From assembly GCA_049970055.1 (NCBI GenBank), contig JBMFNR010000001.1:160001-224000 (forward strand): a stretch of DNA of 64,000 nt, given 5' to 3'. A model generated the notes under the pieces. It saw only the letters and a program-made list of their open reading frames with translations. It was not told the origin of the DNA and ran no database searches. This stretch comes from Fervidobacterium sp. (lineage in GTDB: Bacteria > Thermotogota > Thermotogae > Thermotogales > Fervidobacteriaceae). A program made the translations under genes and the position numbers. Shown here piece by piece: positions 55,969 to 63,783 of the stretch (its first letter is position 1; each line of letters starts with the position of its first letter).

Positions 55969-56526
55969 TTGCCAAATTTGGTATTTCATCTAAGGTTTGG
56001 AATGATTTCATATCCGTTCTATTTAGCAATTTATTCTTTTTTATCAAAGTTGCTCAACAAGACATTTTCACCATCGATCCTTGATGTTGCTATAAGTTAT
56101 CTACTCTACATCGTTGGAAGTGATTTACCAGACTTTGATAGTAATAACGCACCATTACGGAGTTTTACAAAAGCACTATCCCTTGGATTTTCCATATACA
56201 TATTTACTAATTTTTTAAGCGAAAAGCTTACCTCTTTACCGCAAATAAGCATACCTGAAGTACTGTTATTGCCGTTTTCAGTTTCAATATCTATGCTAAT
56301 TGGTGCAGGATTAATAAACCTTTTTTTATCTATGCCGATATTTTCGCACAGAGGTTTTGCACACTCAATAACCTTTGCTTCCATTTATGGGCTTTTGGTT
56401 TATCTGTTTTCAACAAGTAAAAGCAAAAATGCGTTATTTTTAGGAATAAGCGCTTTTGCTGGTGTCATGAGTCACATGATAGCTGATTACAAAGACAAGC
56501 CGAGTAAGATTTTCAAGTTATGGTAG
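55969..56526 (+). CDS. Membrane metal-dependent hydrolase (YdjM family)
   Basis: MPN..FH, GSDLPDFD, HRGFAHS, SHMIAD. Confidence 0.88.
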   Translation: MPNLVFHLRFGMISYPFYLAIYSFLSKLLNKTFSPSILDVAISYLLYIVGSDLPDFDSNNAPLRSFTKALSLGFSIYIFTNFLSEKLTSLPQISIPEVLLLPFSVSISMLIGAGLINLFLSMPIFSHRGFAHSITFASIYGLLVYLFSTSKSKNALFLGISAFAGVMSHMIADYKDKPSKIFKLW

Positions 56527-56562: not shown

Positions 56563-57072
56563 GTGAAGTTTCTTGATGGTGTAAATGTTACATATATTAG
56601 AAAAAGCGAAAAATCGAATTATTCAAAAATATTGAAAGAAATATCAAAAATGACAACAAACCTTGATTTTGAAGCTGTTAATGGTAAACATTTTGGGCGT
56701 TATAGGATAGAATTTTACGAACCAACGGACAAAATTCCAACGATGAAAGTTATAGGTTTCATCACACATGAAAATCCATTGGATTGGTTAATGGAGCAAG
56801 ACAATCAGTCAGAAATAAAATTTGATGAATCTATCCATGTTGTAGATACGGAGGTTCTTGAAGTATCAAAAGATGATGTTATTACAACAGTTATAGTTGA
56901 GCAATTTAAAGTTTACTCCATAGTTAATAAAGAAAAATCCAAAGACCTTACAATAAATGAGCTTGTTAAAATTACGTTGAAAAAAGTTTTTGAGGTGTAC
57001 TTTGATATGGAGTTCAACGAAGGGGAATATGAGATAGAAATACAGCCAGAACTGACGGACTATTTTATGTAA
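56563..57072 (+). CDS. Hypothetical cytoplasmic protein
   Basis: 169-aa ORF with GGAGG RBS and a downstream terminator. Confidence 0.7.
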   Translation: MKFLDGVNVTYIRKSEKSNYSKILKEISKMTTNLDFEAVNGKHFGRYRIEFYEPTDKIPTMKVIGFITHENPLDWLMEQDNQSEIKFDESIHVVDTEVLEVSKDDVITTVIVEQFKVYSIVNKEKSKDLTINELVKITLKKVFEVYFDMEFNEGEYEIEIQPELTDYFM

Positions 57073-57126: not shown

Positions 57127-58194
57127 TTAATCGGGAATTATCTTTGCTACTTCGGGTATTATCTCTACGCTAACTTGTTTACCCTCAAATAATCCTCTGT
57201 CAAACGGTGGTAACATTTTTACCATGATTTCACCGTACTCTGTATCTAAGTAGTATTCAGTGTAATTACCAAGATACACGATAGTTTTTATGGTTCCAAC
57301 AATGGGTCCGTCTGTAGATATCTTCAACCCTTCTGGTCTACAACCAAGTATATATTTATTTGCAATAGAAGTTGGCACGGATGGAATTTTGTATACTTTC
57401 TCCCTAAGCTTAATCACTGTTTGATCAGATCTAGTTTCTACGATATCTATTGGGAAGAAATTTATTTTTCCCATAAACTCTGCGGTAAATTTACTAACGG
57501 GTTTTTCATATATTTCTTCAGGGGTCCCAATTTGTTCTATCTTCCCTTTATTCATTAAAACGATTCTATCTGAAAGTGTTAGTGCTTCTGTTCGATCATG
57601 GGTAACGTATATTGCGGTGATACCAACTTCTTTTTGTATTCTTTTTATCTCAACTCTCATTTGTTCCCTCAAAAGCACATCAAGGTTAGACAACGGTTCA
57701 TCAAATAAAAGTACCGAAGGTTCAACGACGAGAGCTCTTGCCAAAGCTACTCTTTGTTGTTGACCACCAGACAAACTTGATGGTGATCTTTCTCCGTAAC
57801 CTTCCAAACCCACAGTTTTTAGTATTCTTTCGACCTTTCTCTCGATTTCTTCTTTTGGTACTTTTCTCATCTTCAAACCATATGCAATGTTTTCTTTAAC
57901 ATTCATATGTGGAAAGAGACCATAACTTTGAAATACCATCGCCGTGTCTCTTTTCCATGGTGGTATTTCAACAACGTTTACATCATTTATCAATATGTGT
58001 CCGTAAGTAGGTTTCTCGAAACCTGCTATCATTCTCAAAGTGGTTGTTTTTCCACACCCTGAAGGTCCGAGCAAAGTAACAAACTCCCCGGGCTTTACAT
58101 CAAAAGTCACGTTGTCAACAGCTCTTATTTCTCTTCCCTTGTGATCTTTAAATGTTTTAGATACGTGCTCAAACTTCAAGGAAACTTGCTTCAC
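57127..58194 (-). CDS. ABC ATP-binding protein (FbpC/AfuC/PotA family)
   Basis: GPSGCGKTT, LSGGQQQR, DEPLSNLD, YVTHD, TOBE tail. Confidence 0.93.
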   Translation of the reverse strand: MKQVSLKFEHVSKTFKDHKGREIRAVDNVTFDVKPGEFVTLLGPSGCGKTTTLRMIAGFEKPTYGHILINDVNVVEIPPWKRDTAMVFQSYGLFPHMNVKENIAYGLKMRKVPKEEIERKVERILKTVGLEGYGERSPSSLSGGQQQRVALARALVVEPSVLLFDEPLSNLDVLLREQMRVEIKRIQKEVGITAIYVTHDRTEALTLSDRIVLMNKGKIEQIGTPEEIYEKPVSKFTAEFMGKINFFPIDIVETRSDQTVIKLREKVYKIPSVPTSIANKYILGCRPEGLKISTDGPIVGTIKTIVYLGNYTEYYLDTEYGEIMVKMLPPFDRGLFEGKQVSVEIIPEVAKIIPD

Positions 58195-58211: not shown

Positions 58212-60353
58212 TTATTGAACAATTGTTTTTTCTAAATATTCGCTCTTTTTCACAAGTAATCTGAGTAATCCAAATATCGTAAGTATTATTATTATCAACG
58301 TTGATGAGAGAACACTTGCTAGTCCAAATCTTAAATTTTCTGAAAAATTATAAATTAGCATTGTTATGTGATACCATTTTGCAGATATGAGAAATACAAC
58401 AGCACTAACAGCAGTCATTGATCTTACGAACGTATACGAAAGGCTCGAAATGAATGCTGGTCTTATGAGTGGTAAGATTATTGTAGAGAACACAGTTTGT
58501 GGATTTGCGCCAAGGTTTTGTGCTGCCTCCTCAATTGATGCATCTATCTGCTTTAGCGTTGCGACACCCCCCTCGACCCCCACGGGTAATTCCCTTATAA
58601 CATAGTTGATAACGATAATAGCAGCCGTTCCAACTAAGATAATAGGAGGCTTGTTAAAAGCAATTACATAGCTAATTCCTATCAATGTGCCAGGTATGGA
58701 GAATGGTAGTAGCACGAGTCCTTGAAGAAGTTTTTTCCCGGGAAATTTTTTTCTGACAATCAAAAATGCAACTACCATAGAAAAGACTCCGGCTATTGGC
58801 ATAGCTACAATTGCAAGTAATGTTGTATCCATAAGTGCATCTTTTCCACGTTGCAATGCTTCCTTTATATTTGCGGTAGTAAAGGTGTAGTCAATTCCCC
58901 AGTTTTTGACGAAGCATCCCATAAATATCGTTGAGTAAAGTCCTAATAAGAATATCGATATCAAATACACTAATACGGTAAGGATAGCCCTTGTTTTAGG
59001 ACTAACTATTTCAACTATTCTACCGCTTGGTTTACCCGTTACGGTTACATAAGATTTTTTGTTGACTACATACCTTTGTAAATAGAAAGCAGTCAGTGTG
59101 GGAAGCAACAAAAGAAGTGACAGAGCAGCTCCTCTGTCCAATCTATTCATACCGGTGACTTCTAGGTAAGACGTGACAGAAAGCACGTTGAACTTCCCGC
59201 CAAGCATTAACGGGTTTGCGAAGTCTGCTATAGAATTTGTAAAAACTAAAAGCCAAGAGCTAAGTAATCCAGGTATAGAAAGTGGTAAAGTAACAGTAGA
59301 AAAGACTTTCAATCTGCTTGCACCAAGGTTCATGGAAGCTTCTTCCAAAGTGCTATCTATTGATTCCAGCACACCAACCATAGTTAGGTATGCTATTGGA
59401 AACATTCCCATTGTTTGAGCTATGACAAGCCCATCAAGGCCGTAAATGTCCCAGTTGATTTTTAGAAGTTGCTTTGTAATCAAACCATTTGATCCAAAAA
59501 GAAGAATCAAAGATAGGGTTAACGAGAATGGTGGTGATATGACAGGTAATGTAGCCAAAGTTGAAATGAACCGTTTGCCTTTGATACTTGTCCTGGTTAC
59601 AATAAAAGCGAACAAAAACCCAATTATTGTTGAGATTGTAGCTGTTAAAGTACCAAGTAGAATGCTGTTCAAAAATGCCGTTATATAACTTTTTTCGATT
59701 AAAATTGATTTCCAAACATCGAGTGTAAATCTACCTTCCTTTATTAATGTCAACCGTGCGGCTTCGTACAAAGGATAGGCAACAAATACAAGAACTACGA
59801 CAAACGTTACGATTATAGCATAAGTGGTTACTGAATCAACCGAAAATGTTGCTATTGAAAACCCAGTTATAAGTAATAGAAAAATTAAGACAAACATTAT
59901 GTCTATTGTTTGTGCTAGCTTTATTATGTCTGAAGCATCGTGAAGTTGAACCATCACGGCTTTAACTTCGTAATCTTTGACAATAGGTGTGAAGATAGCA
60001 AAATATTTTTTACCATTAATAGTTAACATTTTTGATGATGTATATATTTCCTCATAAATTGCATGCTCTTCTCCGTAAGAAAAGTCTGGCAATTGCCTTA
60101 CAAGTTTTCCGATACCATTAGCGCTTTCTTTTTGGTTTCCTTCAAAATCGTAAATATAATATTCCATATCAGGATAAGTTTTTTCAGGAACTTGGAGACC
60201 CATACTGGCTATTGAATTTGCAAGCTTAGTCAAATTCTCCCGCGTAATGCGGGAGAATTCGTTTTTTATAGTTGTTCTAACCCAAAAGAGAATTACAAAG
60301 AGTATTAGTCCAATCGCCATGAGCTTAACTATTTTCCAATTTCTTTGTTCCAT
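58212..60353 (-). CDS. FbpB/AfuB-type ABC permease with an extra N-terminal TM-Cache-like-TM module
   Basis: Two EAA loops (LEEASMNLGAS; IEEAAQNLGAN) and YVTVTGK; 713 aa with about 170 extra N-terminal residues. Confidence 0.88.
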   Translation of the reverse strand: MEQRNWKIVKLMAIGLILFVILFWVRTTIKNEFSRITRENLTKLANSIASMGLQVPEKTYPDMEYYIYDFEGNQKESANGIGKLVRQLPDFSYGEEHAIYEEIYTSSKMLTINGKKYFAIFTPIVKDYEVKAVMVQLHDASDIIKLAQTIDIMFVLIFLLLITGFSIATFSVDSVTTYAIIVTFVVVLVFVAYPLYEAARLTLIKEGRFTLDVWKSILIEKSYITAFLNSILLGTLTATISTIIGFLFAFIVTRTSIKGKRFISTLATLPVISPPFSLTLSLILLFGSNGLITKQLLKINWDIYGLDGLVIAQTMGMFPIAYLTMVGVLESIDSTLEEASMNLGASRLKVFSTVTLPLSIPGLLSSWLLVFTNSIADFANPLMLGGKFNVLSVTSYLEVTGMNRLDRGAALSLLLLLPTLTAFYLQRYVVNKKSYVTVTGKPSGRIVEIVSPKTRAILTVLVYLISIFLLGLYSTIFMGCFVKNWGIDYTFTTANIKEALQRGKDALMDTTLLAIVAMPIAGVFSMVVAFLIVRKKFPGKKLLQGLVLLPFSIPGTLIGISYVIAFNKPPIILVGTAAIIVINYVIRELPVGVEGGVATLKQIDASIEEAAQNLGANPQTVFSTIILPLIRPAFISSLSYTFVRSMTAVSAVVFLISAKWYHITMLIYNFSENLRFGLASVLSSTLIIIILTIFGLLRLLVKKSEYLEKTIVQ

Positions 60354-61315
60354 CTTTCAACTAACCTCTCTCTATTTTGAGCTTCCCAAAGTAAATCTTG
60401 TTGTATCAGGTTTATATCTTCTATTTTGTACACAAGCTTATTCTTGGGAGCTTTTGGTGAAAGTGGTATAACATACCAACTTGCAATTATTGCCTGTGCT
60501 TTATCACTGAGTATCCAATTGTAAAGTTTTTTTGCTTCAAGAGGTTCTTTACCTCCTTTTATAAGAGACATAGCAGCAATTTCATATCCGGTCCCCTCTT
60601 TTGGAAGAGTAATGACTATTGGAGCCCCTTCTTTCTGGAGTTTTATTAAATCATGAAGGTATCCAATAGCTATTGCTGTTTCGCCGATAGCACAATCTTT
60701 GCCTGGTGCTGAACCAGACTTAGTGTACATATTAACGTTTGCATCAAGTCTTTTTAGATAATCAAAGACTCTGTCTTCATCTTTTTTGTAAATGTTAACA
60801 AGTGTTGTAATAACATTGTAAGCTGTTCCAGACGTATTTGGATTTGCCATTCTTATCAAGCCTTTATATTCTGGTTTAAGTAGATCGGCCCAACTTGTTG
60901 GTGGATTGATGCCAAGTTCTTTAGCTTTGTTTTTGTTTGTCGCAAATGCAAGAGGTCCAACGTACAGTCCAATCCAGTAGCCATCAGGATCTTTGAATTT
61001 TGGATCGATAAACTGGCTATAGGGAGCTTTGTATGGAGTTGTTAAACCTTTCAACTTGGCTTCAACATGGAAAACTCCTACGCCACCAACCCATATAGAT
61101 GCTTGAGGATTGTTCTTTTCTGCCTCTAGTCTTGCTATTACTTCACCGGTGGATAACCTAACCCAATTAACTTTGATACCTGTTTCCTTTTCAAATTCCG
61201 CAAATAAGACTTTTGCCAAAGGTTCTTCAAGTGTTGTGTATGCGTTTACGTAATTGGCCGCAAAGACGACCAATGCTGAGAGAAATAATACTGCTAAAAT
61301 CACATATTTTCTCAT
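60329..61315 (-). CDS. ABC substrate-binding protein (AfuA/FbpA family)
   Basis: FEKETGIKVNWVRLSTGE..RLEAEKNNPQASIWVGG, PTSWADLL, NPNTSGTAY; ATG 61315. Confidence 0.9.
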   Translation of the reverse strand: MRKYVILAVLFLSALVVFAANYVNAYTTLEEPLAKVLFAEFEKETGIKVNWVRLSTGEVIARLEAEKNNPQASIWVGGVGVFHVEAKLKGLTTPYKAPYSQFIDPKFKDPDGYWIGLYVGPLAFATNKNKAKELGINPPTSWADLLKPEYKGLIRMANPNTSGTAYNVITTLVNIYKKDEDRVFDYLKRLDANVNMYTKSGSAPGKDCAIGETAIAIGYLHDLIKLQKEGAPIVITLPKEGTGYEIAAMSLIKGGKEPLEAKKLYNWILSDKAQAIIASWYVIPLSPKAPKNKLVYKIEDINLIQQDLLWEAQNRERLVERWNKEIGK

Positions 61316-61357
61316 ACCCCACACCTCCTACTCGTAGGATTATAGGTTTAGTAAAAT

Positions 61358-62386
61358 CTAAACACTGTAAAAAGGTACATCAACTTTATACTTTCCTCTG
61401 AATGTTTCTTCCTTTAGCATCAGAGGGCTGTCAAGATCATGGAAATCGAAAGCACCTGTTCCAAGCGCAAAGTGTACGCTCTGATTCACTCCTAAACTTG
61501 ATTCAGCCATACAACCCAGCATTAGTCTAAGATTTGCAGCTTTAACTATTTCAACAATTGCAAGTGCATCACTTATACCTGATTTCATAAGCTTTATATT
61601 GATGTAATCTACCGCCTCTTCTTTTATCAATCTTAGAACATCGTACTTAGTTTTTGCACTTTCATCGGCGGCAACGGGGAATGGTGAGTTCCACCTGATG
61701 TACTTCAGACCTTCAATATCGGTCATTGCAACAGGTTGCTCAAAAACAGCTATGTCTATGCCTGCTTTATAAATTTCTGTGACGAATTGAACGGCTTGTT
61801 TAGGTGTGTACCCAGTGTTTGCATCAATTATGTACTTACATCCTTTGCTTACCTCATAAATTGCAATTAGTGCTTCGATATCTTCCTTGAGGTTCTCCCC
61901 CACTTTTATCTTTATTATTCTGTGTCCTCTTGCGACAATTTCTTTTGCATCATTTACCCTTTCCTCGATCGATCCGATACTTATCGTATAATCCGTTTCC
62001 AACTGCTTTTTTGCACCACCAAATATCTGATAGACCGGCACACCAATTTCCTCACTGAAAGCATCCAGCACAGCGTATTGAACGGCTGCTTTTATACTTG
62101 TGGCTGACTTTAATGAGTCAGTAACGTCGAAAATTTTCCTATACTCTTTAACATCCATTCCGACTACCATGTCATTTACAGCATTTTCAAGTCCCAACAA
62201 AGCATCTACTTTTTCGCCGTTAACTCTAAATGATGGAGAGGCTTCACCGTGACCAATCACACCATTTTCTAGTTCTAAAATAACCTCAATATTTTGAGCA
62301 CTATAAGAAATGTTGTTGGTTATGTGGAAAGGTTTTACGTACTCAAAAGTGTTTAATTTGAACTTTACTGATTTAATTTTAGCCAT
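61358..62386 (-). CDS. Dipeptide (L-Ala-D/L-Glu-type) epimerase, enolase superfamily
   Basis: GHGEA, KIKVG, DANTGY, FEQP, AADES, NIKLMKSG, GCMAES, DLD. Confidence 0.93.
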   Translation of the reverse strand: MAKIKSVKFKLNTFEYVKPFHITNNISYSAQNIEVILELENGVIGHGEASPSFRVNGEKVDALLGLENAVNDMVVGMDVKEYRKIFDVTDSLKSATSIKAAVQYAVLDAFSEEIGVPVYQIFGGAKKQLETDYTISIGSIEERVNDAKEIVARGHRIIKIKVGENLKEDIEALIAIYEVSKGCKYIIDANTGYTPKQAVQFVTEIYKAGIDIAVFEQPVAMTDIEGLKYIRWNSPFPVAADESAKTKYDVLRLIKEEAVDYINIKLMKSGISDALAIVEIVKAANLRLMLGCMAESSLGVNQSVHFALGTGAFDFHDLDSPLMLKEETFRGKYKVDVPFYSV

Positions 62387-62403: not shown

Positions 62404-63783
62404 TTAGCTTTTTACTTTTTTAAACTCGATAACTTCAATTTTACTCTCAAGGTCAATAACATAGCCATCTTCTTCTTTTGTGATGACTTCCATTTCACCG
62501 GATTGATTATCGTAAGGATCCAAACGCCATGATAATTTGTTTGGAACAAAATCACTTTGGAATTCAGTATTAGCAATCATTCTGAAACCATCAAGGTTCG
62601 TGAAGTAAAACAACCTTAGGCCTTCGTTTTCTCTTCTACCACCACCAAAGGATAAATCAACAGGTACCCAACCGTATTTTTCAAGGTATATAATTGCCCA
62701 ATCGTGCGGCGAGGCAATAAGAGGTGTTATGCTCCAACCAGATTGCCATCTTGCAGGTACTCCAACCATTCTGCACAGTGTGATAAACAAAAGCGCTTGA
62801 AACCCACAGTCACCTTTGAATACCGTGGCAACGTATTCTGGAATGTTATCATACAGCGCATATGGGAGAACATATGAATAATTTACATTAAGTGTTATAA
62901 AATCGTATATCCGCCTCGCTTTTGTTATATCGTCTATATTTTTTAGATCTTCACCGTGAAATATCAAGTCGATGAGGTTCCAAAGGTAAGGAGTGAATCT
63001 GATGTGTGGTAATTTTTCGGATAAATCCTCCTTGGTAGGATTATCTCTGTACAGTCCTTCAAAACCGATCCAGTCTTGAATTTTGTAAACGAATTCAACG
63101 TAAAAATTTTCTGAATCAAAACCTTCCATATAGACGGTCCTTTGACCTACGTTATTTGGAGCAATTTCAACATCGTGGCTTGATAATATTAACTCAACAT
63201 CCGATTGTTGATATGCTTCTTTCGGAAATGGGAGCCAAACTCTAACCTTTGATTGTGTAGGATTTTCTCGCTTTAAAGTTATTTTCGCCCTTATTTGAAA
63301 CTTTGTTGGCTTTCCGCCATCTATCAATTTTGTGATAGATTTATTTATAATAGCTCTTCTTTTGTTTGCTAATCTGAAATCGTAATCCATCTTCTGTCTA
63401 TCTTTGAACTTCGGATGATTGAAAAACAAATTACTATCAAATCGGTTCTCAAAGTACGGCACATCATCTATGTACATCCACTCTAAGACATTTTCAGACA
63501 TCATCATCTCAAACTCGCTCTTTTTCAAATTTCTAAGTCTTTTCTTGAGTATTTGAAATGCTCTCTCTTTTGTGATGCTGTAAGTCTTTCTTAATAGTAA
63601 TATTCTGTACAATTCAAAGTGTAGCTTTTTATTCAGACCGTGCGGGATTTTATGCTCTAATCGCTCTTTTATCTTCATTTTTGCTCTTTTCAGTTTTCCA
63701 CTAAGTATGTCTCTTTTTATATCTTCCGGTGTTGGAAACACAAGAAAATCCAAGCTCATCCCTCCAATCTTGAAATCTTTCAT
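62404..63783 (-). CDS. Transglutaminase-like cysteine hydrolase
   Basis: Cys-His-Asp triad: GDCGFQA, PHDWA, GWVPVD; start uncertain (63783 or 63759). Confidence 0.85.
   Translation of the reverse strand: MKDFKIGGMSLDFLVFPTPEDIKRDILSGKLKRAKMKIKERLEHKIPHGLNKKLHFELYRILLLRKTYSITKERAFQILKKRLRNLKKSEFEMMMSENVLEWMYIDDVPYFENRFDSNLFFNHPKFKDRQKMDYDFRLANKRRAIINKSITKLIDGGKPTKFQIRAKITLKRENPTQSKVRVWLPFPKEAYQQSDVELILSSHDVEIAPNNVGQRTVYMEGFDSENFYVEFVYKIQDWIGFEGLYRDNPTKEDLSEKLPHIRFTPYLWNLIDLIFHGEDLKNIDDITKARRIYDFITLNVNYSYVLPYALYDNIPEYVATVFKGDCGFQALLFITLCRMVGVPARWQSGWSITPLIASPHDWAIIYLEKYGWVPVDLSFGGGRRENEGLRLFYFTNLDGFRMIANTEFQSDFVPNKLSWRLDPYDNQSGEMEVITKEEDGYVIDLESKIEVIEFKKVKS

Follow-up and report, generated by a model that had tools for sequence, protein, structure and literature searches.

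The importer AfuABC of Actinobacillus pleuropneumoniae and Citrobacter rodentium consists of a binding protein, a fused two-domain permease and an ATPase, and is reported to carry hexose and heptose phosphates such as glucose-6-phosphate, fructose-6-phosphate and sedoheptulose-7-phosphate, not iron (Sit et al. 2015, PMC4546632). Its binding protein, AfuA, is reported there to bind glucose-6-phosphate at 24 nM, and S37, T150, H205, D206 and E229 are given as the ligand residues. In the type I importer MalFGK2-E, the membrane subunit MalF is described as containing an extra periplasmic domain, P2, which is immunoglobulin-like, is inserted between transmembrane helices (TM) 3 and 4 and is located beside the docking place of the binding protein; MalE is reported to bind with a Kd of 7–22 µM, and contact with its N-lobe is reported to be kept through the cycle (PMC6906923). 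The inside-out receptors DvhD and LapD are described as having Cache-fold periplasmic domains that act on proteins, and in DvhD the double Cache region sits on a cyclic di-GMP receptor with PAS and HD-GYP domains (PMC13090378). Here, we analyse a stretch of 64,000 nucleotides of Fervidobacterium sp. DNA (assembly GCA_049970055.1, contig JBMFNR010000001.1, positions 160,001 to 224,000), called the window below, in which the minus-strand open reading frame 58212..60353 encodes a 713-residue ATP-binding cassette (ABC) permease. The permease has the gene neighbours of an AfuABC-like operon and about 176 extra N-terminal residues, the central part of which is predicted to fold as a periplasmic PDC/Cache/PAS-like domain between two TM helices. 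An original prediction, made from the sequence, had proposed a permease fused to such a sensor domain. The organization of the permease and its operon is listed below; weighted frequencies, here and throughout, are from 91 non-identical N-termini.

60276..60353, minus strand: short basic N-terminus (R4, K7, K10), predicted to be cytoplasmic, and TM1, residues 1–26 (helix 2–49 in the model; weighted frequencies K7 0.82, W24 0.96)
59904..60275, minus strand: predicted periplasmic PDC/Cache/PAS-like domain, residues 27–150 (domain-only AlphaFold2 model and fold searches)
59985..60068, minus strand: conserved cluster E96, Y100, E102, Y104, F121, P123, a putative binding site, residues 96–123 (alignments of 28 and 91 sequences)
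59826..59903, minus strand: TM2 and short, presumably cytoplasmic turn into the core, residues 151–176 (helix 141–170 in the model; F170 and D173 conserved)
58212..59825, minus strand: AfuB/FbpB-type fused permease core with two BPD_transp_1 domains and two EAA loops, residues 177–713 (Pfam, PhnU2 and orthologue searches)
60329..61324, minus strand: AfuA-like substrate-binding protein, 331 residues (SBP_bac_6/8; library profiles and AfuA structures)
57127..58194, minus strand: ABC ATPase with C-terminal TOBE_2, 355 residues (ABC_tran and TOBE_2; library profiles)

By its domains and its operon, the permease is assigned to the type I ABC importers with a fused two-domain membrane subunit of the AfuB/FbpB type. 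BPD_transp_1 (PF00528) is the only Pfam family found in the 713 residues; it occurs in two stretches, the better of which covers residues 243–432 (E 2.9e-23, 83 bits, cut-off 26.4). Two EAA-type loops can be read (LEEASMNLGAS..., IEEAAQNLGAN...), and the PhnU2, ThiP and CysT/ModB profiles each align to both halves of the permease. The module is thus in frame with a complete two-domain permease, as had been predicted. The NCBIfam profile PhnU2 (546 positions; TIGR03262, an equivalog for the 2-aminoethylphosphonate permease) matches residues 177–697, starting at profile position 4, with a score of 291.1 bits, which is under its curated cut-off of 593.25, and the binding protein scores 244.8 bits against PhnS2, under the cut-off of 392.75. 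Because Pfam sees only BPD_transp_1 and the PhnU2 match opens at residue 177, the approximately 176 N-terminal residues lie outside every library family. The sequence strings quoted in the original prediction for the segment 59850-60353, which encodes residues 1–168, are all present in the permease: RENLTKLANSIA at residues 38–49, YYIYDFEGN at 65–73 and GKKYFAIFTPIVKDYEVKAVMV at 114–135. The stop codon of the binding-protein gene overlaps the ATG of the permease by 25 nucleotides, and an AGAGG-like ribosome site is located 5' of the ATG. The gene order binding protein, permease, ATPase is kept in all eight loci compared for context.

The N-terminal module was modelled as residues 1–180 using AlphaFold2 (AF2) and alignment A1, which comprises 28 N-terminal modules from genome loci. 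The model has a mean predicted local distance difference test (pLDDT) score of 87.8 and contains, as assigned by DSSP, a helix at 2–49, strands at 63–69 and 74–76, helices at 81–86 and 91–99, strands at 104–112, 115–126 and 129–139, and a helix at 141–170. When both TM helices were included in a fold search by VIA-align, helical hairpins tied with sensor domains; therefore, residues 27–150 were modelled and searched alone. The model of these 124 residues, computed from alignment A2, has a pLDDT of 91.4 and a predicted template-modelling score of 0.85. Its elements, which include a five-stranded antiparallel sheet, follow the order alpha1, beta1-beta2, two short helices, beta3-beta4-beta5 and a C-terminal helix, which is the fold order of PDC/Cache sensors, in which a long N-terminal helix is followed by two strands, short helices, three strands and a C-terminal helix that continues into TM2. 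Among 48,161 representative chains, VIA-align found 12 at Z ≥ 8 with the domain alone. The best 50 rows are all PAS/Cache/PDC domains, and the first 33 come from the extracytoplasmic regions of kinases, of chemoreceptors or of receptors related to these, one having an unknown function. Matches from this search are given below.

WalK extracellular domain (4ywz): Z 10.2, 117 of 124 residues, 3.1 Å
DvhD dCache (9rc2): Z 9.5, 120 residues, 2.8 Å
Chemoreceptor 6d8v: Z 9.3, 120 residues, 3.5 Å
CHASE4: Z 9.0, 121 residues, 3.1 Å
Mlp24: Z 9.0, 116 residues, 3.3 Å
CusS: Z 8.1, 110 residues, 3.3 Å
CitA: Z 7.8, 108 residues, 3.5 Å
DcuS: Z 6.9, 109 residues, 3.4 Å
PhoQ: Z 6.2, 106 residues, 3.8 Å

Since Z values of 7–8 are common for unmatched models, what supports the fold is not Z alone but a uniform list of matches that cover the domain almost completely. 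Furthermore, Foldseek assigned a probability of 1.0 and E values of about 1e-3 to Tlp3, WalK, CHASE4, CusS and KinD, and a language-model look-up in the ESM Atlas, which we use as a lead, pointed to sCache_3 clusters at 0.93. The AF2 models, VIA-align, Foldseek and the ESM Atlas agree, and the check by AlphaFold and Foldseek that had been proposed with the original prediction returned a Cache/PAS fold for residues 27–150. As judged from the predicted models, these residues form a single extracytoplasmic domain of the PDC/Cache/PAS-like fold.

The domain is flanked by hydrophobic helices at residues 11–25 and 151–170. In type I importers, the membrane-domain core has a cytoplasmic N-terminus. 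Because the profile match to the core begins at residue 177, six residues past TM2, TM2 should run from outside to inside, which would place residues 27–150 in the periplasm and the N-terminus of the protein in the cytoplasm. This position between two TM helices is the same as that of the single Cache (sCache) domains of the sensors WalK, CitA, DcuS, PhoQ and CusS. Unlike the PDC/Cache sensors, the permease has no kinase, HAMP, MCP or cyclase output, and its TM2 leads directly into a transporter; Pfam finds no signalling output domain after the module, only BPD_transp_1. The original prediction had offered a transceptor as one possible role, in which the domain would sense a periplasmic ligand and the protein would signal to the cytoplasm apart from transport. 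Only the sensor-like fold speaks for such a role; the protein has no cytoplasmic output domain and ends approximately 15 residues past its last TM helix, and no kinase or regulator is conserved beside the operon in the eight contexts, where a two-component pair occurs only in Marinitoga. A transceptor in the usual sense is therefore highly improbable.

The presence of the module in related permeases was determined by searches of proteins and genomes. A word-indexed protein search with residues 1–180 found 35 proteins, 34 of which cover the whole extension with 49–100% identity, and the remaining one covers just 26% of it. The whole-extension proteins are 711–726 residues long, apart from two partial ones (32 of 34 in this range), and come, by source name, mostly from Fervidobacterium and in one case from Defluviitoga. 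In a six-frame search with the N-terminal domain alone, 49 of 151 genomes of the phylum, belonging to four families, have a match. The conservation of the extension greatly exceeds what would arise by chance. Searching the same 151 genomes with the core (residues 178–713) gave 114 rows, which comprise two groups and eight fragments. In the orthologue group, the core identity of the 56 near-full-length rows is 66–100%. The match falls in an open frame of 690–790 residues in 52 of these; of the other four, one is a pseudogene (G112), one has a frameshift (G075) and two are at contig ends (G089 and G090). All 50 rows of the paralogue group, with 44–48% identity, lie in frames of 555–603 residues. 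One orthologous permease group always carries the module, and the paralogous group, often encoded in the same genome, never does. The source names of the database entries, on which the named taxonomic range rests, place the module-bearing group in Fervidobacterium, Kosmotoga, Marinitoga, Oceanotoga and Defluviitoga. The precomputed Pfam domain of the best 120 core homologues is PF00528 alone in every one.

Plasmid-borne relatives with approximately 44% identity are 572 (Haliovirga) and 560 (Shinella) residues long, and their alignment to the permease starts only at residue 170–194; a tblastn search of 72,556 plasmids with the N-terminal domain gave no match. These lengths and those of the paralogue frames bear out the earlier statement that ordinary relatives are shorter and lack the module. 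The comparison with AfuABC, in which the permease described here has about 176 additional N-terminal residues, takes its length contrast from these plasmid-borne relatives and not from A. pleuropneumoniae AfuB itself.

An artefact has to be considered, in which an unrelated reading frame was joined to the permease through a wrongly called start, a fusion by frameshift or a fault in the assembly, as some shorter database entries (539–591 residues) might suggest at first sight; nothing else in favour of an artefact was found. Three short entries (556, 539 and 551 residues) are truncated or mis-started because their starts fall inside TM2. From M1 onwards, an uninterrupted frame is conserved in 34 near-full-length proteins and across four families, the ribosome site lies 5' of the ATG, and the AF2 model is confident. 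The chance of an artefact is therefore close to nil, and such an origin was rejected on the basis of the conserved full-length frames in proteins and genomes of the phylum. The fusion is not a sequencing error, one of the two findings that the original prediction had named as its own refutation; the other, a fold unlike Cache/PAS, was not observed either. A selfish or mobile origin of the module was also considered, and nothing pointed to one.

Two genomes contain altered versions of the operon. In G075, a single frameshift inside TM2 (locus L026, G075:C7:42400-45624) divides the gene into a 192-residue frame of the N-terminal module and a 511-residue frame of the core, and the core alone is annotated in databases as a protein of 539 or 551 residues. 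A sequencing error, decay into a pseudogene or a genuinely split permease could each account for this arrangement. In G112, which is from the same genus as the window, the orthologous operon (L002, G112:C1:1781333-1784851) seems to have decayed into pseudogenes: an in-frame stop replaces the invariant W54 of the binding protein, and the reading frame of the permease is interrupted after approximately 280 residues, with frames of 287 and 459 residues found. Additionally, full-length domain-bearing permeases of 720 and 734 residues, with 69% core identity, are present in metagenome bins labelled Propionivibrio and Rectinema (P0138 and P0176), which are outside the phylum by name and could reflect mis-binning or lateral transfer.

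The periplasmic part of the module evolves fast, as judged from alignments in which its identity between families is 27–35%, compared with 69–73% for the core and 56–69% for the binding protein. The Fervidobacterium form is shortened by two deletions of 10 and 8 alignment columns. Within this variable domain, E96, Y100, E102, Y104, F121 and P123 are invariant or near-invariant in 28 sequences. The weighted frequencies of the cluster are 0.96 for E96, 1.00 for Y100, 1.00 for E102, 0.87 for Y104, 0.90 for F121, 1.00 for P123 and 0.88 for G132, and those at the membrane ends of the module are 0.96 for W24, 0.97 for F170, 0.97 for D173 and 0.98 for P174. Residues E96, Y100, E102 and Y104 are located on helix 4 and the start of beta3, and F121 and P123 on beta4. 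The i/i+2 spacing of residues 100, 102 and 104 and of residues 121 and 123, together with the hairpin registers of strands 3–5 in the DSSP strings, suggests that the side chains of Y100, E102, Y104, F121, P123 and G132 share one face of adjacent strands, under the helix 91–99 that bears E96. Such a position would correspond to the pocket between the sheet and the helices linking beta2 and beta3, in which PDC/Cache sensors hold their ligands.

Our best reading, to which we assign a probability of about 0.4, is that the module is a cis-acting periplasmic ligand-binding or regulatory (gating) domain, and not a signalling transceptor. The domain would lie on the periplasmic side, next to the face on which the binding protein docks, and its conserved acidic-aromatic site (E96, Y100, E102, Y104, F121 and P123, with G132 in most relatives) may bind a small periplasmic molecule: the substrate itself, or else a related sugar, cation or amine. 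In favour of such a site, E96, Y100, E102 and P123 are invariant despite the background identity of 27–35%. A bound molecule would act by way of TM2 and the conserved turn F170-x-x-D173-P174, which is very short, directly on the first helix of the core, and might in this way adjust how the permease opens or how it reacts to the loaded binding protein. The more specific proposal of a ligand-gated ABC importer, in which a Cache/PDC sensor wired in cis would let a periplasmic molecule tune sugar-phosphate uptake with no kinase or transcription step, is rather unlikely. The original prediction had envisaged a ligand-gated transporter or an accessory substrate-capture domain.

Several observations weigh against the gating domain. 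Z values of 8–10, the range of the closest VIA-align matches, are considered middling, and Z 7–8 is reached by many unmatched models. WalK, the top structural match, has no ligand shown in the data gathered. When the 28 members were scanned with the Pfam Cache models at E ≤ 10, dCache_1 was found in two (best E 0.017) and sCache_3_3 in one (E 0.13), none near gathering scores, and a profile search of 1.84 billion representatives gave 56 hits with no kinase or chemoreceptor relative among them. The protein from the window itself deviates from its relatives at two of the conserved positions, with serine at 174 (59832-59834, minus strand) in place of the proline present in 98% and alanine at 132 (59958-59960, minus strand) in place of the glycine present in 88%. 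Cache/PDC sensors usually signal as dimers, and the fused permease probably carries one copy of the domain per transporter rather than a dimer. Furthermore, the dCache domain of DvhD is described as controlling a protein rather than sensing a small ligand (PMC13090378). Finally, the invariant Glu/Tyr patch could equally fit a salt-bridge interface to the binding protein.

Of the 56 profile hits, the 19 longer ones were scanned: 15 had no family, two contained BPD_transp_1, one had a weak CusS match below the cut-off, and one matched DUF5312 in the TM region only. Neither Pfam nor NCBIfam gave anything significant for the extension, and a sequence-profile search of the Protein Data Bank returned nothing below E 0.2. 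By sequence, the domain thus belongs to no Pfam Cache family. The Cache nature of DvhD, the second-best structural match, is described as likewise invisible at the sequence level (PMC13090378); in contrast to its double Cache on a cyclic di-GMP receptor, the module described here is a single domain on a transporter.

The lack of sequence relatives among signalling proteins in the 1.84 billion representatives, together with the fast evolution of the periplasmic part and the shortening of the Fervidobacterium form, is what might be expected of a passive structural module, which would help the protein to insert into the membrane, to remain stable (at high temperature, for instance) or to take its place in the unusual envelope of this phylum, or would bind another envelope protein, and would have no ligand and take no direct part in the transport cycle. 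However, folding alone hardly accounts for the invariance of the polar residues E96, Y100 and E102 in a domain that otherwise changes fast, and the module is present in all 52 intact orthologue frames. We consider a passive role improbable.

The acidic patch brings in the main rival explanation, namely that the PDC fold is a docking or cap domain, a scaffold that would orient the AfuA-like binding protein on the permease through a protein interface formed by E96, Y100 and E102. In each of 36 further loci with a full-length match, the binding-protein gene lies directly upstream of the permease gene. The binding protein is well conserved (56–69% identity between families) and has many invariant basic residues across orthologues, to which the invariant acidic residues of the module could be the counterparts. 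A single domain per transporter is also easier to reconcile with docking than with signalling by dimers. The precedents are MalF P2, itself an additional periplasmic domain in a type I importer, for which contact with the binding protein is reported (PMC6906923), and the DvhD/LapD domains, described as Cache folds that work by controlling periplasmic proteins (PMC13090378). The module resembles P2 in being an additional periplasmic domain of a type I importer membrane subunit, located beside the binding-protein docking place, but as far as P2 is described, it is not of the P2 type: it has a different, PDC-like fold and is part of an added N-terminal TM hairpin instead of the TM3–TM4 loop, and its contact with the binding protein is a candidate only. 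Moreover, the paralogous permeases and the plasmid-borne relatives have no such domain, the characterised AfuABC is reported to transport sugar phosphates (PMC4546632), and the close structural matches, among those listed by VIA-align, are all ligand sensors. A docking function is plausible and, in our view, somewhat less likely than gating.

Whether it gates or docks, the module places a known fold in a known transporter family in a combination that is undescribed and clade-wide. The literature yielded no account of an ABC importer permease that contains a Cache/PAS-like domain, as judged from search results rather than full texts, and databases annotate the module-bearing proteins only as 'iron ABC transporter permease'. 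The module defines a domain family missed by current libraries, and with it a transporter joins the list of Cache/PDC outputs. Apart from one periplasmic docking loop, MalF P2, the regulatory additions to type I importers encountered here are TOBE-type domains on the ATPase, on the cytoplasmic side. A sensor-fold domain in the permease itself could thus be a new form of outside control of uptake or a second, unrelated docking solution. A ligand-gated importer, if this is what the system is, would give the Cache superfamily a new class of output and show a new way of controlling ABC importers. The role is directly testable because the system is small, non-pathogenic and thermostable and a complementation assay for AfuABC in E. 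coli is reported (PMC4546632).

The likely substrate has to be corrected from iron to a sugar phosphate. The solved structures closest to the binding protein are those of AfuA (4r72–4r75, E 1.7e-56), and the pyridoxal-5-phosphate binder P5PA was also found. The AfuA ligand residues given by Sit et al. (PMC4546632), S37, T150, H205, D206 and E229, align to T59, T167, H224, D225 and E248 of the binding protein, so that all five positions are shared, with threonine 59 for serine 37. In the 27 orthologues of alignment A3, T167, H224, D225 and E248 are invariant, and T59 is nearly so. The binding protein of the domain-free paralogue has kept the residues on the phosphate side, and a T-P pair replaces the H-D pair. 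Because AfuA is closest in the structure search and the five AfuA ligand residues are conserved, the system is probably an AfuABC-type importer with a sugar phosphate, rather than iron, as its class of substrate.

Since the neighbouring genes differ between lineages, the substrate was not deduced from them. In the Kosmotoga-type locus L031:11503-15553 (G048), genes for a NagZ-like beta-N-acetylhexosaminidase, the N-acetylmuramic acid 6-phosphate (MurNAc-6-P) etherase MurQ, a GntR regulator and a kinase that matches NagK weakly are located directly 5' of the binding-protein gene. This is a context of cell-wall amino-sugar recycling, which might hint at substrates resembling MurNAc-6-P or N-acetylglucosamine 6-phosphate (GlcNAc-6-P). 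In another locus, an alkaline phosphatase, Pit and a PhoU-like gene are found beside the operon, and Marinitoga has the two-component pair. In the Marinitoga-type loci L033:3902-7730 and L037:4358-8057, a domain-free paralogous transporter is positioned in tandem directly upstream of the domain-bearing one; it consists of a binding protein, a 563-residue permease and an ATPase. The region upstream of the tandem encodes a PhoB-like regulator and a histidine kinase.

In the window, two genes co-directional with the operon are located upstream of the binding-protein gene.

61358..62386, minus strand: L-Ala-D/L-Glu epimerase, Thermotoga type (NF041118, 589 bits, cut-off 500)
62404..63783, minus strand: transglutaminase-core protein, 459 residues (library profiles)

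The gap between the epimerase gene and the binding-protein gene is 33 nucleotides. Among the eight context loci, the pairing of the epimerase and transglutaminase-core genes is present only in two loci of the same genus (L034 and L038). On the 3' side of the operon, the opposite strand contains a 169-residue open reading frame (56563-57072, plus strand) with no Pfam match, which is adjoined by a gene for a YdjM-family membrane protein (55969-56526).

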